58,871 nucleotides of DNA from Pseudobdellovibrionaceae bacterium (GTDB taxonomy: Bacteria; Bdellovibrionota; Bdellovibrionia; Bdellovibrionales; Bdellovibrionaceae), in NCBI GenBank assembly GCA_019637895.1, contig JAHBUU010000001.1, positions 1-58,871 of the forward strand, in the 5' to 3' direction. Both the position numbers and the translations under genes were made by a program. The notes under the pieces are model-generated. The model was not told where the DNA came from, searched no databases, and was given only the letters and a program-made list of their open reading frames with translations. This document shows positions 1 through 15,828 of this stretch, in pieces (position 1 is the first letter of the stretch; each line of letters begins with the position of its first letter).

Positions 1-347
1 GTAAAGACGGCGTCATGGCCTTCGAACCCGGTTTCGTCAATGCCCAGCCGGGAGATACCGTCGTTTTCATCCCGACCGATCGGGCCCACAACTCCACTTC
101 CCATCTCGTCCCGGACGGAGCGAAACCTTGGAAAGGGAAGATGGATGAAAAGCTCACCGTCAAACTCGACAAAGAAGGCGTCTACATCTTCAAATGCGAT
201 CCGCACCTTCCCATGGGCATGGTCGGAGTCATCCAAGTCGGAAAAGCCGTCAACCTCGCTGCGGCCAAAGAAAAAGCGGATGCTCTGTCGAAAACCTTCG
301 CGATGAACAAAGACCGACTCTCGAAATACATCGGGCAGGTCAAATGA
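1..347 (+). CDS. pseudoazurin (type-1 blue copper protein), 5' end cut by window edge
   Basis: The frame is open from nt 3 (KDGV precedes the M at 15). 'FEPGFVNAQPGDTVVFIPTDRAHN' plus the copper-ligand loop 'KCDPHLPMGM' (Cys-x2-His-x4-Met) match pseudoazurins. Stop TGA at 345-347. Confidence 0.85.
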   Translation, partial: KDGVMAFEPGFVNAQPGDTVVFIPTDRAHNSTSHLVPDGAKPWKGKMDEKLTVKLDKEGVYIFKCDPHLPMGMVGVIQVGKAVNLAAAKEKADALSKTFAMNKDRLSKYIGQVK

Positions 348-514
348 GCCAACAGAAGCACGAGGAATCCTCCGAGGAGAACCTCCCCTCCTTTCAAAAA
401 CTCTATGACCGGCCTTTCCTGTGGCTCACATTGGGGATGATCGTGATGGTCGTCTTCTATACCGCCTGGGGAATCTTCGAAATGACGAATCTCACCAAGG
501 CGCCTCTTCCGTAG
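344..514 (+). CDS. small single-TM protein (56 aa), possible oxidase subunit IIa-like accessory subunit
   Basis: The ATG at 344 overlaps the pseudoazurin stop (ATGA). It has one hydrophobic helix, 'PFLWLTLGMIVMVVFYTAWGIF'. It sits directly before subunits II and I, like cbaD in Thermus cbaDBA. There is no sequence similarity I can vouch for. Confidence 0.45.
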   Translation: MSQQKHEESSEENLPSFQKLYDRPFLWLTLGMIVMVVFYTAWGIFEMTNLTKAPLP

Positions 515-529
515 GCCTCAGACTGGAGA

Positions 530-1087
530 ATGACGATGTCAGAAACAGAAAGCATGCATTCCGGGATTGTCCCCCCACAGGGCGTCTGGTGGAAAAACGT
601 CCCTCCCCAAGAGAAAGTCTGGATCACCATCGCCTTCGTGTGGTGCATGATCCTGTTCGCGATGATGCCGGTTTGGCACATTCGCGGCGGACAGAATCCC
701 TCGGGGATCCGTCACAAAGTGGACCCGGCGGCCTTTTTGGAAAGAACCGAACGCTTCGTCGAAGAGTACAAGATCGGCGAGGAATCGGGGATCCCGGTGG
801 TCGAGCCACCGCCCGGCTCTCATGTGTATCTCGTCGGCCGAATGTGGCAGTGGTACCCCGTCCTGAAACTGAAGAAAGGTGTCGAGTACACACTTCATCT
901 GTCGTCCATCGACGTCAACCACGGTTTCGCCCTGTTCCCGGTCAATATCAACTTCCAGGTCATTCCCGGTTACGACTACGGCTTAAAGATCACGCCGAAT
1001 CAATCAGGGGATTTCCGAATCATCTGTAACGAGTTTTGTGGAATCGGCCATCACATGATGGTCGGCAAGGTTCTCGTCGTCGACTGA
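530..1087 (+). CDS. heme-copper oxidase subunit II (CuA, ba3/B-family-like, single TM)
   Basis: CuA motif 'DVNHGF...ICNEFCGIGHHMM' (H...CxExCGxxHxxM). One N-terminal TM helix. The short ~185-aa architecture resembles Thermus ba3 subunit II, and 'QEKVW' resembles the ba3 'YEKGW' K-channel entry Glu. Confidence 0.9.
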   Translation: MTMSETESMHSGIVPPQGVWWKNVPPQEKVWITIAFVWCMILFAMMPVWHIRGGQNPSGIRHKVDPAAFLERTERFVEEYKIGEESGIPVVEPPPGSHVYLVGRMWQWYPVLKLKKGVEYTLHLSSIDVNHGFALFPVNINFQVIPGYDYGLKITPNQSGDFRIICNEFCGIGHHMMVGKVLVVD

Positions 1088-1103
1088 CATGAAGGAGCAG
1101 CGA

Positions 1104-2834
1104 ATGAGTGGCGCGATTGAAAGACTAAGTTCCCGGTTCAGAACCTGTGCCGTCACTGGACTGAAGGTCAATAAAGATTCTGAAAACCTGATCAAGGCCA
1201 ATGCGGTGATCGCCATCGTCTGCCTGCTGATCGGAGTCACGGCGGCCTTCGGGCTCGTTCTGACCCGATGGCAGACGGTGCACCTCTTACCCGCCGAGAT
1301 GTACTACCGGTTCCTGACTCTCCATGGAATGAACATGCTGATCTTTTTCATCATCTTCTTCGAAATGGCGATCCTGTACTTTGCAGGACCGGTGCTGCTG
1401 AATGCCCGGCAACCAACACCGAAACTGGGCTGGGCCGCCTTCGGATTGATGGTCATCGGGATGATCATGGTGAACGTCATGATCCTGATGGGAAAAGCCG
1501 ACGTGCTCTTCACGTCCTACCCTCCTCTGCAGGCGCATCCTTTGTACTATCTGGGCGTCATCCTGTTCGCCGTCGGTGCCTTGCTGGCAACTTCACTTTT
1601 CTTTGCGGCCCTTGTGGTCGCGAAGCGCGAAAAAACCTATAAAGGCAGCGTCCCCTTGGTGACCTTCGGAGCTACCACGGCGGCCATCATTGCCGTCATC
1701 ACTCTAGTTCATGGAGCCGCGACCTATATCCCGGCACTTCTGTGGTCCATGAACCTGATCGAGCTCGATGCTCAGCTTTATCGGCTTTTGTTCTGGGCCT
1801 TGGGACACTCCTCACAGCAGATCAACGTCGCCGCGATGGTGTCCGTCTGGTATCTGTTGGGTGGCCTCACTGTCGGCGCGGTGGTTCTGAACGAAAAAGT
1901 CAGCCGGACCGCCTTTGTCCTTTATATCCTGTTCATTTCCATGGCTTCGGCTCACCATCTTTTAGTCGATCCTGGTTTTGGTTCCGCTTGGAAAATCTGG
2001 AACACCAGCTATGCGATGTATCTGGCGGTTCTGGCCAGTATGGTTCATGGATTCACCGTTCCCGCCGGTCTTGAGATCGGTCAGCGACTGCGCGGTTTCA
2101 ATGCTGGAAAATTCGAATGGCTTCGCAAAGCTCCTTGGGGCGATCCTGGCTTCTCGGGCATGGTCCTGTCCGTGGTGATCTTCGGATTCCTCGGAGGAAT
2201 CACCGGCGTCGTCATCGGAACCGAGCAGATCAATATCATCGTTCACAATACGATGAGACTCCCCGGTCACTTCCATGCCACCGTCGCGGGCGGAACCGCT
2301 CTCGCCTTCATGGCCGTGACTTACTATGTCTTGCCTTTGATCTTCCAAAAACGAATTGCCTTCTGGAAGCTCGCAAAACTTCAGCCTTGGATTTTCGGTG
2401 GCGGCATGAGCTTGATGTGCATGTCCATGATCTACATGGGGATCTTTGGTGTTCCCCGTCGTCACTGGGACTCCTCTTTCTCGAACGCCCCTTTCTCGGT
2501 GGAATTCCATCCGGCGGTTTGGATCTCGCAAGCCTCCATGGGAGTGGGTGGTCTATTGGCCGCCAGTGGCGCTCTCTTGTTCGTGATCATCGCGGTCGTC
2601 ACGGTCTTCTTTGGGAAACCGCTCACCGAACAGGCGATCCGCGAAGGCGCCAGTGGGATTCCTCAAGGCGTGCTGAAACTTCCGGCCCAACTGCACGAAG
2701 GAGAAAAGGTCGTTGCCGTTCACAAAAAGGGCGCACCGGGAACGATGGTTTTGATCATGATCTTCTTTGCCTGCTTCGTTCTTTACTACTTCGTGAACTG
2801 GAAAATCCTCTCCTTCCTGTGGAAAGTGGGATGA
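1104..2834 (+). CDS. heme-copper oxidase subunit I, B-family (ba3-like) but lacking the cross-linked Tyr; candidate NO reductase-type HCO
   Basis: Heme and CuB ligands are present: 'LTLHGMN' (helix II His), 'GHSSQQ' (codons 1806-1820), 'SAHHLLVDPG' (1953-1958) and 'VHNTMRLPGHFHATV' (2268-2276). By eye it aligns along its whole length with Thermus ba3 CbaA. The ATG at 1104 has SD AAGGAG 6 nt upstream. An alternative in-frame ATG lies at 1089. Confidence 0.9.
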   Translation: MSGAIERLSSRFRTCAVTGLKVNKDSENLIKANAVIAIVCLLIGVTAAFGLVLTRWQTVHLLPAEMYYRFLTLHGMNMLIFFIIFFEMAILYFAGPVLLNARQPTPKLGWAAFGLMVIGMIMVNVMILMGKADVLFTSYPPLQAHPLYYLGVILFAVGALLATSLFFAALVVAKREKTYKGSVPLVTFGATTAAIIAVITLVHGAATYIPALLWSMNLIELDAQLYRLLFWALGHSSQQINVAAMVSVWYLLGGLTVGAVVLNEKVSRTAFVLYILFISMASAHHLLVDPGFGSAWKIWNTSYAMYLAVLASMVHGFTVPAGLEIGQRLRGFNAGKFEWLRKAPWGDPGFSGMVLSVVIFGFLGGITGVVIGTEQINIIVHNTMRLPGHFHATVAGGTALAFMAVTYYVLPLIFQKRIAFWKLAKLQPWIFGGGMSLMCMSMIYMGIFGVPRRHWDSSFSNAPFSVEFHPAVWISQASMGVGGLLAASGALLFVIIAVVTVFFGKPLTEQAIREGASGIPQGVLKLPAQLHEGEKVVAVHKKGAPGTMVLIMIFFACFVLYYFVNWKILSFLWKVG

Positions 2835-2835
2835 C

Positions 2836-3753
2836 GTGAAACTGTCAAAAGGGGCTCCCTATCTGATGATGATGGTCTGGATCCTGGGGACCCTTTTGTG
2901 GTGGGGGCTCGCTTTTTACCCGACGGGGGAACAAACTCCCGAATGGCTGAGTGTCGCGAGGAACGTCTGCTTCGGAGCGATGGATGGGGGCCTGCCCGAT
3001 CCGGCGGGATGGATCGTCCTGACTTTGGGTCCACTGTCTTTTCTGATTGTGGGTCTCGTGGCCTGGCCGAAAGAACTCGGAAAGGCGCTGCGAGGAACCT
3101 GGTCCTCAGGCCTTGGAAAAGTCCTTGCCGTGGTCCTTCTTTTTTCCATCGGAGTCGAGGCCCACTGGGTCCGCAGCAAACTCGCGACAGCCGCTCTCTA
3201 TGAAAATTTCAGCTACAAGAACTCTTCGTCGGAGGACCTGCCCATCGGCTATCCTCGCACGGATCGACCAGCTCCGGATTTCACTCTGGTGGATCAGAGC
3301 GGTTCCGCGTTCCGACTGGCTGAGCACTCGAAAGAGACGATCCTGTTGACCTTTGCCTTTGCCCATTGTGATTCCGTCTGCCCCGTCCTCGTTCGTCAGG
3401 TGTTGGATGTCGCAGAAAGCTTCAAAGGCGGCGTTCGCGTTGTCGTCCTGACTCTGGATCCTTGGCGGGATACTCCGAAATCCCTGCCCTATCTGGCGCA
3501 AGAGTGGGAGTTCCCGGCAAAGGCCCATCTTCTGTCAGGGCCGGTGGCGGATGTGACCGACGTTCTGAAAAATTATCAGGTGTCTTCTCAGCGCAACGAG
3601 AAGACCGGCGACATCATTCATCCGGCTCTGGTCTATGTGATCGCGCCGGGCGGACGAATCGCTTACACCTTTAACAATGCGCCGGACCAGTGGCTGCGTC
3701 AGGCGATCGAACGGATTGCAAACGATGGTCGCACTCATTCGGCATCTCGATAG
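2836..3753 (+). CDS. SCO1/SenC-family copper chaperone with N-terminal multi-TM extension
   Basis: Thioredoxin-fold Cu motif 'FAHCDSVCP' (CxxxCP) and the distal His in 'DIIHPALVYVI'. About 3 predicted TM helices precede the domain. GTG start 1 nt after the subunit I stop. Confidence 0.85.
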   Translation: MKLSKGAPYLMMMVWILGTLLWWGLAFYPTGEQTPEWLSVARNVCFGAMDGGLPDPAGWIVLTLGPLSFLIVGLVAWPKELGKALRGTWSSGLGKVLAVVLLFSIGVEAHWVRSKLATAALYENFSYKNSSSEDLPIGYPRTDRPAPDFTLVDQSGSAFRLAEHSKETILLTFAFAHCDSVCPVLVRQVLDVAESFKGGVRVVVLTLDPWRDTPKSLPYLAQEWEFPAKAHLLSGPVADVTDVLKNYQVSSQRNEKTGDIIHPALVYVIAPGGRIAYTFNNAPDQWLRQAIERIANDGRTHSASR

Positions 3754-5704
3754 GTTCTTCAACCGCCTTTTTTCATCCCGTTACAACCCGATCCATGCTT
3801 CGGGAACCGTCGCTCTGGGACTTTTTTTTATTGTCCTGATCACCGGTCTTTATCTGAGCTTTTTTTATCGGCTCGGTGAACCCTACGAATCCGTCGCAGC
3901 CCTGAATGCCGATCTTTTTTTTGGCTCCTGGATCCGGGCGGTGCATCGTTATGCTTCGGACCTCATGGCGATCTCTGTCGTCTTTCACATCCTCCGAATG
4001 GTCGCCCAAGGAAAAACTTGGGGTCCAAGAACTCTGGCCTGGGTCACTGGCGTTGGCCTTGTGGGCCTGATGCTGATTTCCGCCTGGACCGGCTATGTGA
4101 TGGTTTGGGATGTCCAAGGACAGGCTCTCGCCATCGCCGGAGCCCGAATCATGGATTCCCTGGGGCTCTTTCCCGACCCCATCATGCGTTCCTTCAGCGG
4201 CGCCGAGAATGCCGCAGCCTCTTTCTTTTTCCTGAATCTCTTTCTGCATGTCGCGATTCCTCTGGGGATGGTGTTCGGCGTCTGGGCTCACACCTCGCGA
4301 ATCGCCAGAGCTGACTGGCTTCCGAGTCGTGCCTTCATGGGGGGACTCAGCGCTTTGCTGATTCTCGTCTCTGTTGTCTGGCCCGCTCCGCTGGGGCAAA
4401 AGGCGGATCTTCTGCTCCGGGTCTCTGAGTATCCGAAAGACTGGATTTTCAATTTTTGGATGCCTTGGACAGAGAGTTCCCCTTTGGCGGTCTTTGCATT
4501 TTTTATTTTGGGTGGACTCGTGCTCGCTGCGGCTCCCTGGTATCTGAAACCCCGGGAAAAACGGAAACCTTCGTTCAATGATCCGAATATCTGCATGGGC
4601 TGTTCCCAATGTGTGCAGGACTGTCCCTATGAAGCCATTCAAATGGTGTCCATGGACGTTCGCTCAAAAATGAAAGAAGTCGCTCTGGTCAATCCCGATC
4701 TCTGTGTCAGTTGCGGACTTTGTGCGGCCTCTTGTGAACCGATGACGATCGGACCCGAGGGACGCAAAGGAGGCCATCAAGTGCGGGCCGCCAAGGCCTT
4801 TATGGCTTCTCTCAATGGAAACCTTGCCGGACAAACCTTGATCGTGGGCTGCCGAAACCAAAGTGGCGTTCTCAAATACCTGAACAACAGTTGTCGAACG
4901 ACGGCGGGCTATCAACTGTACCCGGTCGACTGCCCGGGCACACTTCATAGCGTCGTTTACGGCTTGCTGGCTCAGAAATTTTCAAGAGTGGTCATCGCCT
5001 CCTGCCCCGAGCGAATCTGCGTGAACAAGGATGGCTCCATGCTGCTCAACGAAAGGCTCAGCGGAAAACGAGAACCCACTCTGCCCGAAAGCTCTCTTCA
5101 GAAAAAGATCCATGTCTTTCCGGTGGGAGAGGGCGAAGAATCCGCCTTCTTCCGCAATATCAGCAGTGGTCGCGAACTTCCCGTCGCTCGCAAAGGACTT
5201 CGATCCATTCCAGCCTCGGCGATTGTCGCGGGCCTCGGGATTGTTCTGATCGCGGCCGTTCTCACTCGTTCGCCATCGCCCGCCATTTCCGACAAAGGAC
5301 TGCTGCGTCTCAATATCCGGCTCGTCGGTCAGACTGAAAAAACCTGCCGCCCCCCCTCCGCCGAAGAGACCGCAAAGCTCCCTCTGCATATGAGAGCCGC
5401 CGAGATTTGCAGCTATCGTTCTCTCAGCTACCGCATGAAGCTCAACATCGATGGCAAGGAGATCCTTGATGAACCCGTCCATCCAGGGGGGCTCAAACGC
5501 GACCGACCTCTTTATGTCAGTCGAGACATCGAAGTCGACAGCGGAACCCACCGGATCGAATTTTCGATGGAGCCGCTGGAGGCCAGCGCCCAAACCCTGA
5601 GCCTGGCTCTGCAGAAAAACGTTGAATTTCGACCAGGACAAATCGCTCTGATTCGCTACTCGCCCGATGAAAAGAACGCCGTTCTCAAGGAGAAAGCACC
5701 ATGA
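3725..5704 (+). CDS. fusion protein: di-heme cytochrome b (bc1/b6 N-terminal type) + 2x[4Fe-4S] ferredoxin + MvhD/FlpD-like domain + TM + C-terminal beta-rich domain
   Basis: Two His pairs are each spaced by 13 intervening residues: 'AVHRY..VVFHIL' and 'LFLHVA..VWAHTS'. Ferredoxin motifs 'CMGCSQCVQDCP' and 'CVSCGLCAASCEP'. MvhD-like pattern 'LIVGCRN...VDCPG...VVIASCPERICVNKDG'. A late TM helix 'AIVAGLGIVLIAAVL' is followed by ~150 aa. The start is uncertain (ATG 3725, or an upstream start at 3677). Confidence 0.8.
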   Translation: MVALIRHLDRFFNRLFSSRYNPIHASGTVALGLFFIVLITGLYLSFFYRLGEPYESVAALNADLFFGSWIRAVHRYASDLMAISVVFHILRMVAQGKTWGPRTLAWVTGVGLVGLMLISAWTGYVMVWDVQGQALAIAGARIMDSLGLFPDPIMRSFSGAENAAASFFFLNLFLHVAIPLGMVFGVWAHTSRIARADWLPSRAFMGGLSALLILVSVVWPAPLGQKADLLLRVSEYPKDWIFNFWMPWTESSPLAVFAFFILGGLVLAAAPWYLKPREKRKPSFNDPNICMGCSQCVQDCPYEAIQMVSMDVRSKMKEVALVNPDLCVSCGLCAASCEPMTIGPEGRKGGHQVRAAKAFMASLNGNLAGQTLIVGCRNQSGVLKYLNNSCRTTAGYQLYPVDCPGTLHSVVYGLLAQKFSRVVIASCPERICVNKDGSMLLNERLSGKREPTLPESSLQKKIHVFPVGEGEESAFFRNISSGRELPVARKGLRSIPASAIVAGLGIVLIAAVLTRSPSPAISDKGLLRLNIRLVGQTEKTCRPPSAEETAKLPLHMRAAEICSYRSLSYRMKLNIDGKEILDEPVHPGGLKRDRPLYVSRDIEVDSGTHRIEFSMEPLEASAQTLSLALQKNVEFRPGQIALIRYSPDEKNAVLKEKAP

Positions 5705-7041
5705 ATGGATCTCTCGCAAAGGCATGGGTTTCTCTGGGAGTGGTCGCTCTTCTCGCCAGCGGCTTGCTCGCGATCCTCGTCACCGGTGCCAAGATGCCGG
5801 GGGTGAAACATCTGGCGGACGTCGAGTTCATCCGGTGGTGCCTCGTGGTTCATGTTAACCTCGCGACACTGGTCTGGTTCACGGCCCTTCCCGTGGGTTT
5901 GCTGCATCTGTCAACGAAAGTGCGGGGTACCTTCAGCACACAGCTTTCCTGGGCAGGATTCCTGCTGGCACTGATCGGTATGCTGCTCTTGTTCAGCGTT
6001 CCCCCTCAAGAGGGTGTCCGCCCCATTCTGTCTAACTACATTCCTGTTCTCAGTCACCCCCGTTACTCCATCGGGATCGCCGTCTATCTGGCGGGCATTG
6101 CTCTTGGCCTGCTGTCTCCGAAGTTTTTTGTCGACTCTTTTTCCATCGCGAAAAGATGGCCAGGCCTGCTGGAAATTCGCTTTGGCCTTTTTGTCGGTTC
6201 AACCTTTATCGGCCTGGCCATTGTCACCCTGGCTCTTGCTTTCAAGGATCTCGCTTCGGTTCCATTGATTTCGGAGTTTCGTTTTTTTGAACTGGGAATG
6301 TGGGGAGGTGGGCACTTGATTCAGCACGCCTCGGCTGTTTTCACGGTCTGCGCCTGGGTGCTTTTTTTGTCACGACGAGTGGACCAACCGATTCTTTCTC
6401 GCTCTGAACTCTTTGTGGTCTTTGGGTGGATCGGCCTGCCGATCTTTTTTGTCCCCGTCATTCTGTTCTTCGATGTCACGGGTGGCGATTACAGACAGGG
6501 CTTTACCTGGCTGATGCAGTGGGGAATCGCACCACCGATTGTCTTTTTTCTCGGCCGAGCCCTTTGGCGCCTTTCTCCGCGTCTGTCCGACTTGAAAAAT
6601 CACGAGATCGTTGCTTTTTTTCTAAGTGCCTCACTTTTGCTGATGGGTTTCGTCTTCGGAGCTTTCATCCGCGGACCCGATATGCGGGTTCCGGGTCACT
6701 ATCATGCCAGCATCGGCGCCGTGACTCTTGCTTTTATGGCCCTGGGATATCTCCTGCTAGCCGACCGAGCAGAGAGCCGCTGGATGCTGAAGTCCATGTG
6801 GTTCTACGGTGTCGGCCAAGCGGTTTTTGCAGGGGGAATGTTCCTGGCTGGTTCCTTCGGAATGCCACGGAAAACCTATGGGGCTGAACACGTCTTCACG
6901 CATTGGGGACAGGGTCTCGGTGTCGCCGTGATGGCCATCGGTGGGATGGGTGCTCTCATCGGTGGAATCCTTTTTGCGGTGGCGATCATTCCTCGCTTGA
7001 AATCGACGGCGCCTCTGGCCGGGAAGGTGGCTCATGTCTAA
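5701..7041 (+). CDS. divergent, shortened heme-copper-oxidase subunit I paralog (446 aa) lacking the helix-VII His-His CuB ligands
   Basis: It retains 'LVVHVNLATLVWF' (helix II His, codon 5851), 'VPGHYHASIGAVTLAF' (HxH, 6697-6705) and 'MPRKTYG'. Helix VI reads 'WGGGHLIQH' (His 6313, His 6325). No HH motif is found where ba3 has 'GFHHQFADPG'. The ATG overlaps the upstream stop (ATGA). Confidence 0.7.
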   Translation: MNGSLAKAWVSLGVVALLASGLLAILVTGAKMPGVKHLADVEFIRWCLVVHVNLATLVWFTALPVGLLHLSTKVRGTFSTQLSWAGFLLALIGMLLLFSVPPQEGVRPILSNYIPVLSHPRYSIGIAVYLAGIALGLLSPKFFVDSFSIAKRWPGLLEIRFGLFVGSTFIGLAIVTLALAFKDLASVPLISEFRFFELGMWGGGHLIQHASAVFTVCAWVLFLSRRVDQPILSRSELFVVFGWIGLPIFFVPVILFFDVTGGDYRQGFTWLMQWGIAPPIVFFLGRALWRLSPRLSDLKNHEIVAFFLSASLLLMGFVFGAFIRGPDMRVPGHYHASIGAVTLAFMALGYLLLADRAESRWMLKSMWFYGVGQAVFAGGMFLAGSFGMPRKTYGAEHVFTHWGQGLGVAVMAIGGMGALIGGILFAVAIIPRLKSTAPLAGKVAHV

Positions 7042-8029
7042 GTCTAAAAAACTGCTGTGGTTGCTGAGTCTGCTCATCATGCTTTTTTCCATGGTCGCTG
7101 TGGGCGGCATCACCCGACTGACAAAGTCCGGTCTGTCGATCACCGAATGGCGACCGGTCACAGGCACGCTGCCACCCCTGTCGGAAGAAGCCTGGCAAAA
7201 AGAGTTCGATCTTTATCGCAGCTCGCCCGAATTTGAGCACCACAACAATCATTTCGAACTCGAAGATTACAAAGGCATTTTCTGGTGGGAATATCTTCAC
7301 CGCCTGTTGGGACGGGTGATCTTTTTCACCGCGACGGTCATGGGCTTTGTCTTTTGGCGGAAGAAAGAATTCTCGGGCAAACGCGCTCTGCTTTTGCCGG
7401 CCTTGATCGCCTTTCAAGGGCTGATTGGCTGGCTGATGGTCAAGACGGGGCTCAATCACCGCCCCTCTGTCAGCCATTATATGCTCGCGGTTCATTTTCT
7501 ACTGGCTCTGCTCACCATGAGCGTCGTCTATCATTCCCTTGCAAAGATGAAACAGCCTCTGGTTGTGAAGCTTTCAACGAAGGGCCGTTTCTTGATCGGT
7601 TTGCTGGGAGGCTTGATCCTGCTGCAGATCCTTTATGGCTGCTTCACCGGAGGCCTGAGAGCGGGGCTTTACTTCAATACGTTTCCTTTGATGGATGGCC
7701 GCGTGCTCCCTCCTCAAGGCTGGGATCTGGTTCCCGGCTTTCGAAATCTTTTTGAAAACCCCATCACCGTGCAGTGGATCCATCGATGGTTGGGCATTGG
7801 CCTTGCCGTCATTCTTCCCCTTGTGAGCTTTCATCTGCTCCGGTGCGAAAGCCCAGCGTTCAAAAGACCGATCCTGCATTTGGTGAGTGTCGTCGTCATC
7901 CAAGTCCTCTTGGGAATCTCGACCTTGCTCTTTCTGGTCCCGGTGCCCCTCGCCGTCTTTCACCAAGCGATGGCCGCCCTGATCTGGCTGGGCTATTGCA
8001 ATCTGATCTTCCGAATCAAGACCCCCTAG
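7034..8029 (+). CDS. ctaA: heme A synthase (COX15/CtaA family)
   Basis: 'VGGITRLTKSGLSITEWRPVTG' is the typical COX15/CtaA N-terminal signature. It is a multi-TM protein with conserved His residues ('YLHRLLGR', 'HFLLAL', 'IHRWLG', 'FHQAMA'). It overlaps the upstream gene by 8 nt. Confidence 0.85.
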   Translation: MSKSKKLLWLLSLLIMLFSMVAVGGITRLTKSGLSITEWRPVTGTLPPLSEEAWQKEFDLYRSSPEFEHHNNHFELEDYKGIFWWEYLHRLLGRVIFFTATVMGFVFWRKKEFSGKRALLLPALIAFQGLIGWLMVKTGLNHRPSVSHYMLAVHFLLALLTMSVVYHSLAKMKQPLVVKLSTKGRFLIGLLGGLILLQILYGCFTGGLRAGLYFNTFPLMDGRVLPPQGWDLVPGFRNLFENPITVQWIHRWLGIGLAVILPLVSFHLLRCESPAFKRPILHLVSVVVIQVLLGISTLLFLVPVPLAVFHQAMAALIWLGYCNLIFRIKTP

Positions 8030-8130
8030 CCCGACGCTTCTTAAAGCCGGGTTAAAGCCCATAGAGAGGGGAAAAATTCACAGTTCATTCCCCTAATGAC
8101 CAAATCGTCAAATTCGTATAGACTTTCCCT

Positions 8131-8880
8131 ATGTCGATCAAATCAGAAAAAGATCTCGAAGGGCTTCGGAAAATCGGTCGTATCGTGGCGCGATGCCTGC
8201 AGCTCATGCAATCGAAGCTCGAGCCCGGAATGACAACCGCTGAACTGGATGCCATCGGCGGGCAGTTTTTGGCCTCGCATGGAGCCCGATCGGCGCCGCA
8301 GCTGACTTATAACTTCCCTGGTTTCACTTGTATCAGCGTCAACGAAGAAGCGGCCCACGGCATTCCCGGCAGCCGAGTTTTACAGGCCGGAGATCTGGTG
8401 AACATCGACGTTTCGGCTGAGCTGGACGGCTACTTTGCCGACACCGGTGGCTCTGCGGTCATTCCTCCGGAATCGAAGCTCTATCTGCAAATCTGTGCTG
8501 TCGCGAAACAAGCCCTCGAAAATGCCATGCTGGAAGCGCGAGCCGGAGCCAAGCTGAACCGCATCGGTTTTGCCATCGAGGCCGAAGCCGTCAAAAATGG
8601 ACTCACCGTCATCGAAAATCTGGGAAGCCACGGCGTCGGTCGCGCTCTGCACGAAGAGCCGGGCTTTATCCCCGGTTATTATGACAAACGCGACAAGCGA
8701 GTTTTGCGGGAAAATCAGGTCATCACAATCGAGCCTTTTATTTCGTCCGGCGCCCGTGAAGTCTTTGAAAATGGCGACGGTTGGACTCTGATGACAAGCC
8801 CCGGAGTCTTCACCGCTCAATACGAGCACACGATGGTGATCACCAAAGGCAAACCGCTCATCATGACACTGCCGAACTGA
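8131..8880 (+). CDS. map: methionine aminopeptidase, type I
   Basis: Full-length match to the MetAP-I pattern: 'CISVNEEAAHGIP', 'GDLVNIDVSAELDGYFADTG', 'GHGVGRALHEEP', 'ITIEPF', 'QYEHTMVIT'. Confidence 0.95.
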   Translation: MSIKSEKDLEGLRKIGRIVARCLQLMQSKLEPGMTTAELDAIGGQFLASHGARSAPQLTYNFPGFTCISVNEEAAHGIPGSRVLQAGDLVNIDVSAELDGYFADTGGSAVIPPESKLYLQICAVAKQALENAMLEARAGAKLNRIGFAIEAEAVKNGLTVIENLGSHGVGRALHEEPGFIPGYYDKRDKRVLRENQVITIEPFISSGAREVFENGDGWTLMTSPGVFTAQYEHTMVITKGKPLIMTLPN

Positions 8881-8895
8881 GCGCTTGCGAACCGC

Positions 8896-10663
8896 TCACT
8901 CGGAGATGCCAATATTCAGTTTCGCAAAATAACGCCGACCGGGTTCACCATATCCATAGTCATTGCCTAAGACATGGTTCCCGACGTTTTCGACCACGAA
9001 GCCCACCGAGGCCTCCTTGAGGATTTGTCGCGGGATCTTATAAGAGCTTCCGAGATTCCAAAGAAGATACTCGGCCAACTGCTGATTGATCCCTCCGCTC
9101 TCGACCGTTCGTCGCCCATGATAGCTGAGCGTCGAGTGAAAACCGAGCCGGTCGGAAAAGTCCCATTCTCCGGTCAGATTGGAAATCATTCGGGGAGTAT
9201 TGGTCAAAATGCGATCCTCGGTCAGATTGCGGGCTTCGGTGTAGGTGAGGTTCCCTTTCAGCAGAAACATTTCCGTCAGCCGATAAGAAGCGCCGCCTTC
9301 GATCCCCTGAGTTCTCGCCCCATCAATGTTCTTCAAGAGGCGATACCGATCCGTTCCAATGGTTTCAAAATAGGTCGTGATCATGTCATCGAGATCTGCT
9401 CGGAACACCGTCAGATTCAAACCCGTGCGTTCCGTCTTGAAGTAAAGACCCGCTTCGTAGCTGACGCTTTTTTCCGGCGACAAATCGGAGTTTCCGATCA
9501 TCGTGCAGGCCCCTTGGCAGCTAGGAAGATGAAAGTTCGGATCCATTTCCAAAAGTCCCGGAGGCTTGTAACCCGTCCCCACGCCGGTTTTGAGCGTCAA
9601 GTCGGAGCTGAGCTGGCTGGTCAAATAGGCGCGTGGGCTCAGATGAGACCCAAAGCTGTCGTGTTTCGTTTGTCGAAGGCCTAAAGTCAGAACCGAGTCA
9701 GCCGTGACAGAAATCGAATCCTCGATAAAGACCGCTAGTTGGCTTGCTTTGGTTTCCCCCGTCGTCAGTTGAGCCTGATTCCGCAAAACGTTTTTTTCTG
9801 CGTCGATGCCGGCGACGATGAAGTGGCTCTCGCCGATCGCCCGTTGCAACTGCGCCTGTGCGGTTTCGGTCCCTAAGCGAGCCTTCGCTCCGTCCTCGTA
9901 ATCATAAAAGTCTCCGGAAACTCGAAGTGTCGTCTTGGTGTTTTCCCAGATCCCCTTGTGTTGGGCATCGAAATGATCACGTTTGATTTTTGTCGTCCGT
10001 GGTGTCCCTCGGGACAGCATTTCTTTTTTTTGAAAATTTCGCCCGAGATTCAACCCCAGCTCCTGGCCCGGACTGACCTTCCAACTGAGTTCGCCATCAT
10101 AAGAGGAATCATCGCGCCCATCATATTGACGGGAATCACTGGCCGCAAATTCAGGACGTGGTTTTTGCAGACTGCGTCCGGTGAGTTTCAAACCCAACTG
10201 ATCCCGCTTCAAAGGACCACTCACAGAAAACTGAGTCTGGTGCTGCGTCTTTGATTCTTTCGATGTCCTGCGGGGAAATCCAAGACAGATCGGCATCGTC
10301 ATTTTGACGAACAGACAGCGAGCGCGAGGTCAGGCGCCTCCCATCGACAAGAATCAGGGCATAGCTGGAATCAAATCCCCTCAGACTCACTCCCCGGTTT
10401 GTTCCCCCGATGAGCATGACGCCATCTGCGTAGCGCAGGACATCCGCCACCGTGCTGACCGTCTGTTTTTCGATTTCCTCATGGGTGATGATCGAAATAC
10501 TTGCCGGAGCCTGCTGGATATCCTGCTCGATCAGAGAGGCCGATTCGACCCGGATCACTCCGAGAACGGTCTCTTCGGTACCCGTCGAAGGCTCCGCAAA
10601 AGTGGCCGAGGAAAAAACAAGAAGAAATGTTGCTGCAAAAAACCGCGTCATGAGGAGACTCAT
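8896..10663 (-). pseudogene. TonB-dependent receptor, disrupted (frameshift plus loss of the conserved plug-barrel junction)
   Basis: The N-terminal ORF (to 10151) has a signal peptide and plug ('VSLRGFDSSYALILVDGRRL', 'DLSWISPQDIERIK'). The beta-barrel ORF (8896-10302) is in another frame. The frames switch around 10240-10260. The usual 'IEV.RGP.S.LYGS.A.GGVINIITK' segment is absent in both frames. The start codon is uncertain (10651, 10663 or 10675). Confidence 0.6.
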
Positions 10664-10790
10664 GACCGAGGCCATATCGAAATCCCCATCTCCAGGCAAT
10701 GCGATGTCTGAACACAGAGGCAGTTGAAAGCAATTTAAAAACGAGGACCACCGAACTGCAAGTCAAATGAGTTTCCGTGAAAGCCTCGGA

Positions 10791-11237
10791 CTAAATCGAT
10801 CCTTCCGGATGATCTTGGCACCACATTCGAACACCGTGAGCAGAAGCGATCCAGCCCAGAATTTTTCCATCCTGGTCCATCAACTTCCAGAGTTCAACGG
10901 CCCAACGATTGCTGCCATCGACGAAGATATTTTGAAACAACGCCACCTGATCCGCTCGCAGGCCGGAATCCCGGTGTCGATTCACCTCGTCCAGCAAATG
11001 AGGCAAGCTCGTCGGAGGCGTGGTCACTTCGCCTGCCGTCGTCCAGGGGGACGTGTACAGGGGCAATGCTCCAAGAGTGTAGACACTCCCTAACTTGCCA
11101 TTTTCATCCTGGAAAAGCCGAGCATAAAATCGGGGGAAAGTTGTCGAGTGTCCGTGACATTCCACGAGGGTCCGAGGAGCGGCTTCGGCCAGACCGAGTC
11201 CCAGCAAAAAAACGAAAAAAACCAACAATGTCCTCAT
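10791..11237 (-). CDS. secreted hypothetical protein
   Basis: The internal ATG at 11237 has SD GAGGGA upstream. Signal peptide 'MRTLLVFFVFLLGLGLAEA'. No motif recognised. Confidence 0.5.
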   Translation of the reverse strand: MRTLLVFFVFLLGLGLAEAAPRTLVECHGHSTTFPRFYARLFQDENGKLGSVYTLGALPLYTSPWTTAGEVTTPPTSLPHLLDEVNRHRDSGLRADQVALFQNIFVDGSNRWAVELWKLMDQDGKILGWIASAHGVRMWCQDHPEGSI

Positions 11238-11262
11238 TGATCCCTCTGTTTGCGATCTCGTC

Positions 11263-11736
11263 TTAAAGCAGACGGAGAAAGAAGCCATCCACCACGATAA
11301 TCAGCGCCACGGTCCACCCCAACATCAGCACCAGCAGAACCCAAAGATCCCACTTGGACGGAGGATCGCGCCGTTTCATCTCGACGAAATTCAAGGTCGC
11401 TACAAAATTAAAGACCAAGGGGAGCAAGAAGCCAAGAAGACTGAAGATGACCACTCGCTTCCGATAGTTCTTTCGAGCCGGAAGATCGTCAGCAGAGGTT
11501 TCAGCGCCCTCCCCATCGGCCAAAAACTCGTCCAAAACATGTTTGGCGGAAATAAAGTCGCGTTCGGAAATATACAGATCCGCTCTGTCCTGAACTCCAC
11601 CCAGAACGAGCGTGGTGTACTCCCTCGGCTGAGAGACCACTCGTGCTTCGATGCCTTTTCGTTCGAGCTGTTCTTTGACGGCCAAGGCCATCCAACCCTG
11701 CTCGAAACGATGCAATTTCTTTTCGGCCATGCTCAT
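11263..11736 (-). CDS. hypothetical membrane protein (soluble N-terminal domain + 2 C-terminal TM helices)
   Basis: The ORF has protein-like composition. The N-terminal ~70 aa are reminiscent of small DUF2007-type domains. TM segments 'VVIFSLLGFLLPLVFNFVATL' and 'LWVLLVLMLGWTVALIIVV'. Confidence 0.45.
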   Translation of the reverse strand: MSMAEKKLHRFEQGWMALAVKEQLERKGIEARVVSQPREYTTLVLGGVQDRADLYISERDFISAKHVLDEFLADGEGAETSADDLPARKNYRKRVVIFSLLGFLLPLVFNFVATLNFVEMKRRDPPSKWDLWVLLVLMLGWTVALIIVVDGFFLRLL

Positions 11737-11807
11737 CGGTAACGAGAAGAACCTGGACTGTCAATGAACGGTTTTCTTGCATAGACTAGGAGCCCTAGAG
11801 AGGCTTC

Positions 11808-12782
11808 ATGTTTGGACATCTTCAAGAACTCGATCAACTCCAACAGCTCCTTGAACGGTTCCCTCTTCCGAATCTGCAAACTCGGACCTTGGCCACCGTC
11901 GAAACAGCAAAAAAAACCTATCCAATTCTGGGACTGACTCTTGGCAACCCCGATCCCTCGGCGCCCACTCTTTTTCTTGTCGGTGGCGTTCATGGTTTGG
12001 AAAAAATCGGTTCACAGGTTTTGATTGCCTATCTGGCGGTTCTTTTCCGCCAGCTCACTTGGGACGAACACCTGCAGGAACTTTTTAAAAAAGTTCGCAT
12101 CTGCACGATTCCGATCTTGAACCCCGGCGGAATGGCCCACTCTCGTCGAAGCAACCCGAACGGTGTCGATTTGATGAGAAACGCTCCCGTCGAGAGCCTC
12201 TCATCGAATCGTCCTTGGCTGATCGGTGGCCAGCGTCTGAGTCCCCGACTGCCGTGGTATCGCGGACCCGAGGGCGCGCCGCTTGAACGGGAAGCGCAAA
12301 CCCTGATCGACTTCGCCAAGGAAAACTGCCTAACGGCAAAGACCTGCTTGGCCATCGATTTTCACTCCGGCTTCGGGATGAGGGACCGATTGTGGTACCC
12401 CTACGCAAAAACTCAGGAGCCTTTCCCGAAACTCAAAGAGGCGATGGCACTGAAAACGCTTCTTGATCTGACCTATGCCCATCATGTCTACAAGATCGAA
12501 TCCCAGTCTGACAGCTACACCACTCACGGAGATCTCTGGGACTATCTGTTTGAAATTCACGAAAGCTCGCCACTTTATCGAGATCATCTGTTCCTGCCCT
12601 GGACACTCGAGATGGGCTCTTGGACATGGCTGAAAAAAAATCCACTTCAGATTCTCAGCCCGCACGGACTGTTCCACCCGATGAAGCTGCACCGTTATTC
12701 ACGGGTCATGCGTCGGCACATTCTGCTGATCGATTTTTTCCTGAAGGCCACCGCCCATAGCTCCAGCTGGAGCCCTCGATGA
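11808..12782 (+). CDS. M14-family zinc carboxypeptidase-like protein (DUF2817-like)
   Basis: Zn ligands 'GGVHGLEKIG' (HxxE) and 'AIDFHSGFG' (distal His), plus 'IPILNPGGMAHSRRSNPNGVDLMRN'. Confidence 0.7.
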   Translation: MFGHLQELDQLQQLLERFPLPNLQTRTLATVETAKKTYPILGLTLGNPDPSAPTLFLVGGVHGLEKIGSQVLIAYLAVLFRQLTWDEHLQELFKKVRICTIPILNPGGMAHSRRSNPNGVDLMRNAPVESLSSNRPWLIGGQRLSPRLPWYRGPEGAPLEREAQTLIDFAKENCLTAKTCLAIDFHSGFGMRDRLWYPYAKTQEPFPKLKEAMALKTLLDLTYAHHVYKIESQSDSYTTHGDLWDYLFEIHESSPLYRDHLFLPWTLEMGSWTWLKKNPLQILSPHGLFHPMKLHRYSRVMRRHILLIDFFLKATAHSSSWSPR

Positions 12783-13537
12783 CGAACTGGGTTTTCATCC
12801 GCGGCCTCGGTCGACAGAAAACCCACTGGAAAGGCTTTCCGGAAAAACTCCAGGCCCGACTCGGAGGAGACATCCACTGTCTCGATCTCCCCGGCGTCGG
12901 CGAAAAATCCCCATTGAAATCTCCGCTCAGAATCTCGGAGTATTCAGAGAATCTCCATCAAGAACTCAGCTCCCTCAAATCGAAAGCGGATCCCCAAACC
13001 CCGTGGGCACTGGTTGCGGTGAGCCTCGGCGGCATGGTCGGTTTGGATTGGGTCTCGCGGTTCCCATCGGACTTTCAAACTCTTGTCACGATCAATACCA
13101 GCTCGAAGGACCTGAGCCCTCTTTTTCACCGCCTGCAACCTCGGGCTTTAAAAACGGTCCTGCGACTTTTCTGGAGCAATGACATTCGCGCTCGGGAAAA
13201 AGCGATTCTCGAGCTCACTACCAATCTGGTCACAATCGATGAGGAGCTGCTTGATCTCTGGGTTTCTTTCGATCGGCAATATCCCCTGACACGACCAGTT
13301 TTTCTGCGGCAGCTGCTGGCCGCCACTGGATTTCGCCTGCCGCCCTCGCTCCCCACGCGAACCCTGGTGTTGGCTTCGGAGCAAGATCACTTGGCTCACC
13401 CCCAATGTTCACGAGCCCTGGCCCGGCACTTTCAAACCGAATTGGCCGTGCACCCCACGGCCGGTCACGACCTGGTCTTGGATGCTCCCGAATGGGCGAT
13501 CGATCAGCTCGAAAAATTTATGATGTCGAAGAAATGA
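12779..13537 (+). CDS. alpha/beta-fold hydrolase
   Basis: 'WVFIRGLGRQKTHW', nucleophile elbow 'AVSLGGMVG', C-terminal 'HPTAGHDLVLD' (catalytic His region). The start overlaps the upstream stop (ATGA). Confidence 0.75.
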   Translation: MTNWVFIRGLGRQKTHWKGFPEKLQARLGGDIHCLDLPGVGEKSPLKSPLRISEYSENLHQELSSLKSKADPQTPWALVAVSLGGMVGLDWVSRFPSDFQTLVTINTSSKDLSPLFHRLQPRALKTVLRLFWSNDIRAREKAILELTTNLVTIDEELLDLWVSFDRQYPLTRPVFLRQLLAATGFRLPPSLPTRTLVLASEQDHLAHPQCSRALARHFQTELAVHPTAGHDLVLDAPEWAIDQLEKFMMSKK

Positions 13538-15539
13538 ACGCCGCCAACGTCCGATAGAAAAGGCGCGCATCGATCGGCTTTGTTAGGTACTCATTGCATC
13601 CCACCCGCAAGCAACGTTCCCTGTCCTCTTTCATCGCATGAGCGGTCAGTGCAATGATGGGCACCGAATACCCCCGTCGCCTCAGCTCCTCGGTCGCCGC
13701 ATAGCCGTCCACCACGGGCATCTGCATGTCCATCAGCACCAGGTCATACCGATGGGCCAAGGCCTTTTCGATTCCCTCACGGCCATTGTTCGCAAAATCC
13801 AAGACCATGTTCTTGCGTCCCAAGAAAACCTTCACCAAAAGCTGATTGTCGATGGAGTCTTCAACCACCAAGACATGCTTCCCGCTGAGTTCCAGATAGT
13901 CTTCGTTCACGGGTGGGACCAGTTCGACAGGCTTTTGACCTGATCCTAGCTCGGGTTGATAAGGCAGGGTCAGAATGAAAACAGACCCCACTCCGGGCCG
14001 ACTGGATTCCAGTTGGATGTCTCCGCCCATGTACTGAGCCAATCGACGAGACAGCAAGAGCCCCAGACCTGTACCGCCGTACTTGCGACTCGCCGAATGA
14101 TCCAGCTGGGAAAAAGCTTTGAAAAGTTGACCGTGCTCTGACTCGTTGATTCCGATTCCGGTGTCACAAACACGGAAGAAAATCGTTTTGTCTTTTTGAC
14201 CGTAAAAAACCGTGACCGAACCTTCGTGAGTGAACTTCAGGGCATTTCCGACAAGATTGGTCAGGATCTGGCGCAAGCGAGTGCGATCGGAGGACAGCAG
14301 TTCCGAAATCTCCCCTTGCCTCCGAAACTCCAAGACGTTCTTTCCTCGATGCGCCAACAATTGCAGATTGGCATTCAATTCGTCGATAAACTCATTCAAC
14401 TCAAAGGTCGAACTGTGAATGTCCAGATGGCCCGCTTCGACTTTCGAAATATCGAGAATGTCATTGATGATTTGCTGCAGATTCTTTCCCGTCTGCTCGA
14501 TCACCGCGATGTATTTCTGACGGTCTTCTTCGGTCAGGTTGGGGTCCTTGAGCACCTCGACAAGCCCCAGAATCACGCCCATCGGAGTGCGAACCTCGTG
14601 ACTCATATTCGCCAGGAAAAGGCTTTTCACCTGGTTGGCGCTTTCCGCTTTTTCCTGGCGTCCAATGCTCGTCTGAAGATCTTCGATCATCTTGTTCAGG
14701 CTGTGGGCCATGCAGCCCAACTCATCCTGAGAACGAACGGGAACCCGTTGAGTGAAATCGCCGCCCCCCACCTTCATCGCTACATCGCGAACCTCACCGA
14801 TGCTGCGTCGGAAGTACCGGCTCAGCCCATAAATCAGAACAATCCCGGTCCCACCCACCAAACCCACGGCCGCGATCAGAAGAATCATCATGATCTTCTC
14901 AAGGGCGCGAGCCCCATCCGTCATTCGCTTGGTGAAACCGGCTTGCAGGCCGGAAAACTCCTGATTGAGCTCTCCGATCCTCTCGATGGAAGCAGCAATG
15001 ACCGCCTCTCTCGGAGACGACGACTCGATTTCCCGATGCAGGGTCTCTCCCTCGGCGAGGACCTCCTCGTACATGCGATCCGATTTTCTCCAGAGGTCGG
15101 CGCTGCTCTCCATATGGGGAAGACCTCGCACGAAGCGAATCAGTCGGATGATATTCGGAATATCCGATGGAGGAAGACCGGCCTCGGTAAAGGCCGCCGT
15201 GACGATCTTGATTTTTTCGGTGCAGGTGCGGATGTCCTCACAGGTTTCCATGGTCGTTCGCGCTCTTTTGAACCCCGCAGGGACCCGCGAGGCCTCTAAA
15301 AAATCCTGATAGTGCTTTTCCTCCCGAACGACCGAGTAAGTGTACAGGCTCAGGGTGGCGTTTTTCTGGGCAATGCTCCAATGACCGGCCAATCCGACAA
15401 AGGATCGAAGTGCTGACAAGGTGGTGAACGAAAAGTGCAACGCGAACAGCTCGACCGTGATCAACAAGATCAAAACGCCCACCAGGGTGGACAGTTTTTT
15501 GGCAATCGAAATGTCCTTCATCCAATGGATCATCTTCAC
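13518..15539 (-). CDS. hybrid sensor histidine kinase / response regulator
   Basis: Two TM helices flank a ~190-aa sensor domain, followed by a HAMP-like domain. H-box 'FLANMSHEVRTPMGVILG', N/G boxes 'LTNLVGNALKFT', 'DTGIGI', 'GTGLGLLLS'. C-terminal receiver 'VLVVEDSIDN...DLVLMDMQMPVVDG...TAHAM...KP'. Confidence 0.9.
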   Translation of the reverse strand: MKMIHWMKDISIAKKLSTLVGVLILLITVELFALHFSFTTLSALRSFVGLAGHWSIAQKNATLSLYTYSVVREEKHYQDFLEASRVPAGFKRARTTMETCEDIRTCTEKIKIVTAAFTEAGLPPSDIPNIIRLIRFVRGLPHMESSADLWRKSDRMYEEVLAEGETLHREIESSSPREAVIAASIERIGELNQEFSGLQAGFTKRMTDGARALEKIMMILLIAAVGLVGGTGIVLIYGLSRYFRRSIGEVRDVAMKVGGGDFTQRVPVRSQDELGCMAHSLNKMIEDLQTSIGRQEKAESANQVKSLFLANMSHEVRTPMGVILGLVEVLKDPNLTEEDRQKYIAVIEQTGKNLQQIINDILDISKVEAGHLDIHSSTFELNEFIDELNANLQLLAHRGKNVLEFRRQGEISELLSSDRTRLRQILTNLVGNALKFTHEGSVTVFYGQKDKTIFFRVCDTGIGINESEHGQLFKAFSQLDHSASRKYGGTGLGLLLSRRLAQYMGGDIQLESSRPGVGSVFILTLPYQPELGSGQKPVELVPPVNEDYLELSGKHVLVVEDSIDNQLLVKVFLGRKNMVLDFANNGREGIEKALAHRYDLVLMDMQMPVVDGYAATEELRRRGYSVPIIALTAHAMKEDRERCLRVGCNEYLTKPIDARLFYRTLAAFISSTS

Positions 15540-15828
15540 TCAAATCGGTTCTTTCACTAAATTCTAATGATTTACCCCAAAAGCCCTGCCGAGGAAAATT
15601 AAATTTCCTCACGTTCTCTCGCTTTCTTAGATTAAAATGCCTTAAGTCACTCTAACCCCGCCTGTTCCTTGCTCTCAGATGAGTTGACGAGTTCTTCATC
15701 GACTGGCTGCGCCACGTCATGAGGCATTCACTCAAGAAATCAGCCCTCTTCTTAGCCTCTCCGATTTGACAATGGACAGAGGCGGACATTTTGTTAAATT
15801 TCCACCTCCTTCTTTCCGGAGAAACAGC

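Follow-up and report, generated by a model that had tools for sequence, protein, structure and literature searches.

A conserved subunit-I-like protein with both heme sites but without the helix-VII histidine pair accompanies eNOR gene clusters

Introduction

The closest described relatives of the protein considered here are the eNOR-type nitric oxide reductases, which belong to the heme-copper oxidoreductase (HCO) superfamily. As Murali et al. define it, eNOR is a distinct family, and the enzyme purified from R. marinus reduces NO and has heme A(s) at both heme sites (PMC11214002). The signature of eNOR is a glutamine at the position of the cross-linked tyrosine (PMC8756737, PMC11214002). The heme A synthase CtaA is described as common in eNOR operons, and eNOR-type enzymes are thought to make a large share of environmental N2O (PMC11214002). 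Here we examine an eNOR operon from a Pseudobdellovibrionaceae bacterium (assembly GCA_019637895.1, contig JAHBUU010000001.1, positions 1 to 58,871). This whole stretch of 58,871 nucleotides will be called the window. Its forward strand encodes, at 5701..7041, a 446-residue paralog of HCO subunit I, which we will call the paralog; its homologues are the family. We are confident that the paralog represents a conserved, experimentally uncharacterized branch of the HCO superfamily, that it resembles subunit I in having 12 helices, and that it is an accessory of eNOR clusters in denitrifiers.

When we searched the literature for an HCO homologue described as lacking CuB, we found a single passing mention, in a preprint by Becker et al. 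(10.64898/2026.01.22.701106). They report an "eNOR scaffold protein" from Ferrigenium straubiae (IMG 2878407321), which is a COX1-like hypothetical protein annotated as K02274. Its gene lies in an eNOR operon with the genes for heme O synthase, Sco1, and a cytochrome b-FeS protein. Becker et al. give the protein's function as unknown, call the arrangement "a very common observation," and name the protein in passing, with no motif or sequence analysis. Its transcript was present at about 300 transcripts per million (TPM), like those of Sco1 and CtaB, versus 2,000-13,000 TPM for eNOR subunits I and II, and the protein was detected in the proteome (10.64898/2026.01.22.701106). The paralog fits the genomic setting described for this COX1-like gene. 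Judging from annotation and context, the F. straubiae protein very probably belongs to the same family.

The HCO families listed by Murali et al. are the A, B, and C oxygen reductases, cNOR, qNOR, eNOR, sNOR, gNOR, nNOR, bNOR, NOD, and a putative N2O reductase (PMC11214002). The paralog's family is none of these. As far as the active sites are described there, they have a largely complete metal-B site, and the main text of that paper does not describe a protein like the paralog. What is new is a family for which neither Pfam nor NCBIfam has a model of its own and that had previously received only a passing mention in a preprint.

We know of no established route by which eNOR acquires heme A(s) and its metals, and of no equivalent of Surf1 or Cox11 for HCOs of the B-family type. 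The paralog is a concrete candidate for the missing step in eNOR biogenesis or electron supply, as the family keeps the hemes, has lost the second metal, and includes natural fusions with heme O synthase and with cytochrome b. The family also matters for annotation. Its members carry an oxidase-type label, which leads to a false extra oxygen reductase in metabolic reconstructions from metagenome-assembled genomes.

A subunit-I-like protein that keeps both heme sites

The initial annotation of this gene, which was made from the DNA alone, held that its product is homologous to HCO subunit I. We found ample support for this. The paralog matches Pfam's COX1 model (PF00115) over its full length (E = 1.7e-8), with a score of 34.2 bits against a gathering cut-off of 34.8 bits. 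Precomputed matches to PF00115 are present for many family homologues and absent for others. No NCBIfam model matches the paralog, and a search of the PDB with the single sequence (phmmer) found nothing. Only a family profile, built from 37 homologues, reached the ba3 oxidase of T. thermophilus (E = 4.5e-10) and an Aquifex oxidase (E of about 5e-10), across helices I-XII. The initial annotation had proposed a comparison of hidden Markov models (HMMs); when we aligned the family to 29 eNOR subunit I sequences with hhalign, the probability was 99.9% and the E value was 2.3e-32, at 23% identity. The family's HMM gives 103 bits to the eNOR subunit I in the window, about 40 bits to ba3, and -24 bits to an A-family COX1. 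Judging from these matches, the paralog derives from the eNOR/B-family lineage of the HCO superfamily and is closest to eNOR.

Structure prediction agrees. The AlphaFold2 model of the paralog has 12 transmembrane (TM) helices, a pLDDT of 93.6, and a pTM of 0.93. When this model was compared to known structures with Foldseek, the top matches were all HCO subunit I, with TM-scores of 0.68-0.75. The best match was the Aquifex enzyme (7DEG), and the ba3 chains have TM-scores of about 0.7. By sequence profile, these B-family oxygen reductases are the paralog's best relatives of solved structure.

The paralog and eNOR subunit I have the same 12-helix core, the same heme ligands, and a place in the same operon. 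They also have several motifs in common: S/N-Y-x-P...H-P in the loop between helices III and IV, W-x2-G-H-x2-Q in helix VI, P-G-H-[FY]-H in helix X, and a P-R-[RK] loop. In contrast, only eNOR subunit I has the His-His pair of helix VII, a second glutamine at the tyrosine position, the WNTSY motif, helix XIII, and a C-terminal tail. The paralog's family also evolves much faster than eNOR subunit I (mean pairwise identity of 43% versus 68%).

The paralog has two predicted heme sites, and both sets of histidine ligands are kept, as had been claimed. By alignment, His51 in helix II corresponds to His79 of eNOR and His72 of ba3, and His335 in helix X corresponds to His396 of eNOR and His386 of ba3; these would bind the low-spin heme. 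His333 corresponds to His394 of eNOR and His384 of ba3, which bind the high-spin heme. (The helix-X motif is thus His333-Tyr-His335.) The loop read as MPRKTYG had been likened to VPRRAY, and hhalign indeed places Arg390 and Lys391 opposite Arg457 and Arg458 of eNOR, which are the propionate-binding pair ("PRR"). As far as sequence can tell, the paralog keeps every residue needed for a low-spin and a high-spin heme.

These residues hardly vary. We counted them in 313 distinct full-length members of the family. His51 and His333 are present in all 313 and His335 in 312; Arg390 and Lys391 are found in 312 and 310. Several residues of the distal side are conserved to the same degree: Trp201 (313; it corresponds to the conserved helix-VI Trp236 of eNOR), His205 (312), and Gln208 (306). 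So are Met272 (311), Tyr113 (311), Ser309 (308), Asn112 (306), and Glu197 (296). Overall, more than 20 positions are kept in at least 94% of members, and five are kept in all of them. Among 1.84 billion representatives of clusters at 50% identity, 728 proteins reached E <= 1e-30, and they come from many phyla. We estimate the true size of the family as about 700 clusters, since the family profile gives eNOR subunit I itself no more than 85-125 bits. The sequences thus show a family that is strongly constrained rather than in decay.

Loss of the metal-B site

His205 corresponds to His240 of eNOR, which is the first of the metal-B ligands, and to His233 of ba3. The initial annotation read helix VI as GGGHLIQH, with histidines at 205 and 209; we agree with this. 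It further proposed that His209 lies at the position of the cross-linked tyrosine, and in the paralog itself this is so: position 209 is at i+4 of His205, and it aligns with the tyrosine-equivalent Gln244 of eNOR. But this histidine is specific to a clade. Across the 313 members, position 209 is Phe in 111, Leu in 60, Val in 52, and His in 50. The helix-VI motif that the family does conserve is H-x2-Q, which eNOR also has: Gln208 corresponds to Gln243, which is invariant in eNOR and near-invariant in the family. There is no tyrosine at i+4 of His205 in the paralog, and none is conserved nearby.

The reported loss of the CuB histidine pair from helix VII also held up, and it extends to the whole family. 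In the hhalign alignment, Pro252 and Val253 lie opposite His289 and His290 of eNOR, and none of the 313 members has a His pair at this position. Consecutive histidines occur anywhere near helix VII in just one member, where they lie in a cytoplasmic loop, and 240 members have no histidine at all in residues 232-262. A subclade of the Verrucomicrobia type (31 members) has a single histidine one turn lower, at position 248, and 45 members have a histidine within 236-256. Two ideas fail on these counts. The initial annotation had suggested that H-x3-H could form a rebuilt metal site; with His209 in only 50 members, and with no second or third His ligand in helix VII, this is not supported. It had also allowed that a correct alignment might recover two CuB histidines elsewhere in helix VII, and the survey of all 313 members found no such pair.

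Other features of eNOR are missing as well. The invariant helix-VIII residues of eNOR (Trp304-Asn-Thr-Ser-Tyr308) and His320 have no counterpart in the paralog, which has a 9-residue deletion here, and the lower half of its helix VIII is hydrophobic. Conserved polar residues in helix VIII that resemble a K-channel are described for eNOR (PMC11214002), and the paralog lacks them. The HNT motif that precedes helix X in eNOR is replaced.

The paralog fits none of the types with which we compared it. It lacks the His-Tyr cross-linked cofactor of the A, B, and C oxygen reductases. Instead of the H-x3-Q and three metal-B histidines of eNOR, it has His at 209, a position that varies across the family, and a conserved glutamine at i+3. 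The sNOR, gNOR, nNOR, and bNOR families are described as having three His, or two His and one Asp, with or without a Glu, at metal-B (PMC11214002), and in the paralog one of the three ligand positions is filled. Unlike ba3 and 7DEG, the paralog has no CuB ligand except for the equivalent of His233, no cross-linked Tyr, no K-channel residues, and no dedicated subunit II. Nor did it match the NnrS model (Pfam PF05940); a true NnrS is encoded by a separate gene in one of the related loci (L164, below).

Association with eNOR and other heme A enzymes

The paralog's gene begins with an ATG that lies 8 nt downstream of a ribosome-binding site (AAGGAG). As had been noted, it is start/stop-coupled to the preceding gene, a cytochrome b-FeS fusion (3677..5704, forward strand): the ATG overlaps the TGA stop (ATGA). 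At the other end, the final 8 nt of the paralog's gene overlap the start of ctaA at 7034, so CtaA is translationally coupled in the window. The nearby HCO that had been called Tyr-less (1089..2834, forward strand, 581 residues; 220 bits for Pfam's COX1) has GHSSQQ, with Gln at the Tyr position, as well as AHH and HFH. Because this is the published signature of eNOR, we identify it as eNOR subunit I.

We then examined the genomic neighborhoods of the family. From 195 relatives in species-representative genomes, we kept 80 loci, all from metagenome-assembled genomes. The closest relatives are from Bdellovibrionota (69% identity), and others are from Myxococcota, Verrucomicrobiota, Acidobacteriota, Planctomycetota, Spirochaetota, and other phyla. 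Forty-five of these loci have at least 7.5 kb on both sides. In 39 of the 45, eNOR subunits II and I and the cytochrome b-FeS gene lie on the same strand as the family member, and most of these loci also have SCO1. The gene order is family member-II-I-SCO1-cytochrome b in 60 loci, and II-I-SCO1-cytochrome b-family member(-CtaA) in 6 loci and in the window. The adjacent HCOs of the related loci all have GHxSQQ and HFH. Each one whose sequence was assembled in that region has the HH pair, and all but two open reading frames have AHH.

Genes for cofactor synthesis and for denitrification recur in these neighborhoods. Heme O synthase (TIGR01473, above the model's cut-off) is present in 22 of the 80 loci, Crp/Fnr regulators in 9, and NirK-cytochrome c in 6. 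Locus L164 is a complete denitrification island with NnrS, Crp, eNOR, SCO1, cytochrome b-FeS, the family member, NirK, NosZ, NosL, NosD, NosF, and NosY. In locus L028, from Calditrichaeota (9980-16951), a family member instead heads an A-family oxidase operon (family member-SCO1-CoxA-CoxC-...-CoxB). CoxA there scores 650 bits with TIGR02891, the CoxB gene encodes CoxB-cytochrome c, and a heme O synthase (CtaB) is nearby; there is no eNOR or cytochrome b-FeS gene within 10 kb. This locus indicates that the family is associated with clusters for heme A oxidases and not with NO chemistry alone. The neighbors of a few Acidobacteriota members were uninformative, and a Pfam scan around "orphan" members (L051, L057, L059, L065, L067) yielded nothing of use except for one P-type ATPase. 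All-against-all clustering of the open reading frames in the neighborhoods suffered from noise where contigs had high GC content; its only additions were CtaB, Crp/Fnr, NirK, and a radical-SAM family.

The radical-SAM/SPASM protein (TIGR04053, above the family's cut-off) is encoded in 10 of the 80 loci, such as L023 (7565-8764, reverse strand) and L006 (16334-17329, reverse strand). Its closest named relatives are the heme b synthase AhbD and NirJ. It may be an O2-independent tetrapyrrole-modifying enzyme that is linked to the paralog and eNOR.

The reverse association is far weaker. We collected the 80 metagenome loci whose eNOR subunit I is most similar to the window's (62-79% identity), of which 27 are well flanked. 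The family's HMM found a member in just one of the 27, L084, which has the window's gene order along with CtaA. The initial annotation expected co-occurrence with the Tyr-less subunit I, and this is correct for loci chosen by the paralog's family but not for loci chosen by eNOR. Because the association is 39 of 45 in one direction and 1 of 27 in the other, eNOR, as sampled here, does not depend on the paralog, whereas the paralog depends on eNOR. The paralog is an accessory, not a core component, of eNOR clusters, and among the eNORs most similar to the window's we can rule out that it is an obligatory subunit.

By comparison, SCO1 is nearly universal in the eNOR-centered loci, and 25 of the 27 have the cytochrome b-FeS gene. 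The cytochrome b-FeS gene was called "rather unusual" by Becker et al. (10.64898/2026.01.22.701106); in our sample it is a near-universal companion of eNOR. Six eNOR loci without the paralog (L118, L121, L130, L131, L134, and L141) have CtaA near the cytochrome b-FeS gene. In all of these but L141, CtaA adjoins that gene directly, on the strand opposite to that of eNOR. The arrangement suggests that CtaA and the cytochrome b-FeS protein are functionally linked, for instance by electron supply.

Gene fusions provide another view of the family's partners. In P0218, a family member is fused to heme O synthase (250 bits for TIGR01473, with a cut-off of 210), in a locus that encodes eNOR II, eNOR I (with GHPSQQ), a 48-residue open reading frame, the fusion, and SCO1. 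Fusions of CtaA to CtaB have been reported. In P0223, a di-heme cytochrome b without the FeS domain is fused to a family member, and nirS follows. One other member is fused to a TPR domain.

We also compared rates of evolution, using mean pairwise identity over 59 loci and the window. The values are 68% for eNOR subunit I, 63% for eNOR subunit II, 43% for the paralog, 42% for the cytochrome b-FeS protein, and 37% for SCO1. Across loci, the paralog's identity co-varies with that of eNOR subunit I (r = 0.84). The paralog travels with the eNOR module but evolves like the accessory genes (SCO1 and cytochrome b-FeS).

Candidate functions

We tentatively favor, at a little under even confidence, a role for the paralog as a redox-linked accessory for cofactor maturation of the adjacent heme-A-type enzyme, and not as a second NO reductase. 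It would bind a prenylated heme (heme O or heme A(s)) that is made by CtaB and CtaA, would exchange electrons with its di-heme cytochrome b-FeS partner, and would support the supply of heme A(s) to eNOR subunit I or the loading of that subunit. It might only hold the heme or it might also modify it chemically; both are compatible with the sequence. We prefer this reading because family members keep company with SCO1, CtaB, and CtaA; because one is fused to CtaB; because the rate of evolution is like that of SCO1 and the expression is also accessory-like; because one is attached to an A-family operon; because only a subset of eNOR operons have the gene; and because there is no second metal and there are no proton-path residues. 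Of the three options raised in the initial annotation (a different metal geometry, a subunit that is non-catalytic or a sensor, and an assembly factor), the evidence favors the last.

The known factors for heme A biogenesis and insertion (CtaA/Cox15, CtaB, Surf1/Shy1, and CbaX) resemble the paralog in their genomic setting, with CtaA, CtaB, SCO1, and heme-A-type HCOs nearby. Like CtaA, the paralog would have a heme held as a cofactor and a second heme site. But it has no kinship with these factors in sequence or fold (its matches are to Pfam's COX1 only and to nothing in NCBIfam). Since it lies outside the Surf1, Cox11/CtaG, CbaX, Sco1, CtaA, and CtaB families, it would be a new kind of assembly factor. 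A conceptual analogy is NifEN, which relates to NifDK as a paralog of catalytic subunits without the catalytic ligands, encoded beside maturation genes; the proteins themselves are unrelated.

Several points weigh against a maturation role. The paralog's function is inferred from sequence and genomic context. The hemes of HCO subunit I are deeply buried, which makes a hand-over of heme mechanistically awkward. Invariant His205, Gln208, and Trp201, together with the fusion to cytochrome b, would be no less expected of a working redox site than of a passive chaperone. Of 81 family loci, only about 5 have CtaA next to the family member, and most of the eNOR operons that we sampled do not have the gene. 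Each of the fusions is known from one cluster, and P0223 begins at the edge of its contig. Finally, the F. straubiae "scaffold" gene is a probable member of the family, matched by annotation and context.

The paralog might instead be a heme-only redox enzyme or electron-transfer module, with its hemes wired to those of the cytochrome b-FeS-FlpD protein; we consider this unlikely but worth taking seriously. Electrons from quinol or from a cytoplasmic reductant would reach a high-spin heme with no metal-B, where the distal His and Gln would bind a small molecule. The reaction could be NO detoxification or dioxygenation, scavenging of O2 for a micro-oxic denitrifier, or NO reduction by a cis-heme mechanism. 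Such an enzyme would explain why the heme ligands, the propionate Arg/Lys pair, Trp201, His205, and Gln208 are invariant, and it accords with the ATGA overlap with the cytochrome b fusion gene, with the nirS gene beside the cytochrome b fusion in P0223, and with a full denitrification island at L164 (NnrS, Crp, eNOR, NirK, and NosZDFYL). Also, the F. straubiae cytochrome b-FeS variant has FAD and NADH domains, a reductase arrangement reminiscent of flavohemoglobin (10.64898/2026.01.22.701106). However, such an enzyme would have to work with no second metal, and we saw no conserved K- or D-type proton-path residues (WNTSY is absent and HNT is replaced). The paralog evolves as fast as the assembly genes, fusion to a biosynthetic heme O synthase would be odd for a respiratory enzyme, and the L028 member is in an A-family oxidase operon without the cytochrome b-FeS gene. 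A more specific proposal, to which we give only a small chance, is that the paralog and the cytochrome b-FeS-FlpD protein form a four-heme membrane redox enzyme whose HCO scaffold has no second metal. It would oxidize heme O or form heme A(s), or supply electrons to CtaA; in a second version, it would be a heme enzyme that handles NO or O2. If the first version is true, then denitrifiers that rely on eNOR could make heme A at very low O2, which would address a question from the literature, namely how an enzyme that is used near anoxia obtains an O2-dependent cofactor.

Could the paralog belong to an eNOR supercomplex without being catalytic, as a structural or regulatory subunit that docks eNOR I/II to the cytochrome b-FeS protein and acts as a relay or stabilizer? 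The strict gene order on the same strand and the correlated identities with eNOR subunit I are as expected, and Becker et al. raise a supercomplex as a speculation (10.64898/2026.01.22.701106). But 26 of the 27 eNOR-centered loci lack the paralog, although 25 keep the cytochrome b-FeS gene; the F. straubiae "eNOR scaffold" transcript is sub-stoichiometric; and a pure relay would need no conserved pocket for a high-spin heme. We consider this role improbable. A membrane sensor for NO or O2, with a five-coordinate heme as the receptor, seems very improbable. Its distal His and Gln over the heme, in an otherwise hydrophobic pocket where V, I, or P replaces HH, would suit such a receptor, and Crp/Fnr regulators are near the family member in 9 loci. 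Yet the paralog has no output domain, no conserved partner has signaling domains (the single TPR fusion is the only hint), and a low-spin heme for electron transfer would be superfluous. Lastly, two of the three metal-B ligands are lost and the Pfam score is just under the gathering threshold, as might be expected if the paralog were an eNOR subunit I duplicate that is non-functional and in decay. The initial annotation had named decay as the outcome if the H-x3-H motif or the heme ligands proved not to be conserved. The heme ligands and the distal-pocket residues are invariant across phyla. With about 700 clusters, full-length members from many phyla, over 20 conserved positions, conserved synteny, and a confident fold, we reject decay.

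Other features of the locus

The remaining genes of the operon are all on the forward strand. Heme A synthase CtaA (7034..8029; 331 residues) scores 308.6 bits with Pfam's COX15-CtaA, and housekeeping genes lie downstream of it. The SCO1/SenC copper chaperone (2836..3753; 305 residues) matches PF02630 (E = 3.3e-20). The cytochrome b-FeS fusion has 675 residues as listed, and it matches Pfam's Cytochrome_B and Fer4. It comprises a di-heme cytochrome b, two [4Fe-4S] clusters, an FlpD/MvhD-like domain, one TM helix, and a C-terminal domain of about 130 residues. The match to FlpD is weak in the window (E = 0.0085) and clear in homologues. The C-terminal domain (within 5290-5701) has a conserved HMR motif between two cysteines and had no match in a Pfam scan; in L164, its counterpart is a separate gene of 165 residues, immediately upstream of the family member. 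The listed start of the fusion overlaps SCO1 by 77 nt (3677-3753). Because alignments to homologues begin at residues 8-25, the true start is probably an internal Met at about 3725.

eNOR subunit II (530..1087; 185 residues) is a CuA cupredoxin that matches Pfam's COX2 (E = 3.9e-5), with the CuA motif CNEFCGIGHHMM. The last 35 or so residues of the window's eNOR subunit I (2720-2834) form one TM helix (...VLIMIFFACFVLYYFVNWKILSFLWKVG), and in L082 this segment is a separate gene of 48 residues (2473-2619). This is a small subunit in split or fused form, reminiscent of subunit IIa of ba3.

Directly upstream of eNOR subunit II is a conserved open reading frame for a protein of 56 residues with a single TM helix (344..514). 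A Pfam scan found no match for it. In L163, L164, and L082, homologues of 46-56 residues are encoded at the same position, and they have the motif Y-T-x-W-G-x-I-E in common. This protein may be an unannotated small subunit of eNOR. Further upstream, and adjoining the start of the window (where it may be cut), is a cupredoxin of the plastocyanin/azurin family (15..347; 110 residues). It matches PF00127 (E = 1.7e-12) and has a type-1 copper motif (C-x2-H-x4-M). It is probably the periplasmic electron donor to CuA.

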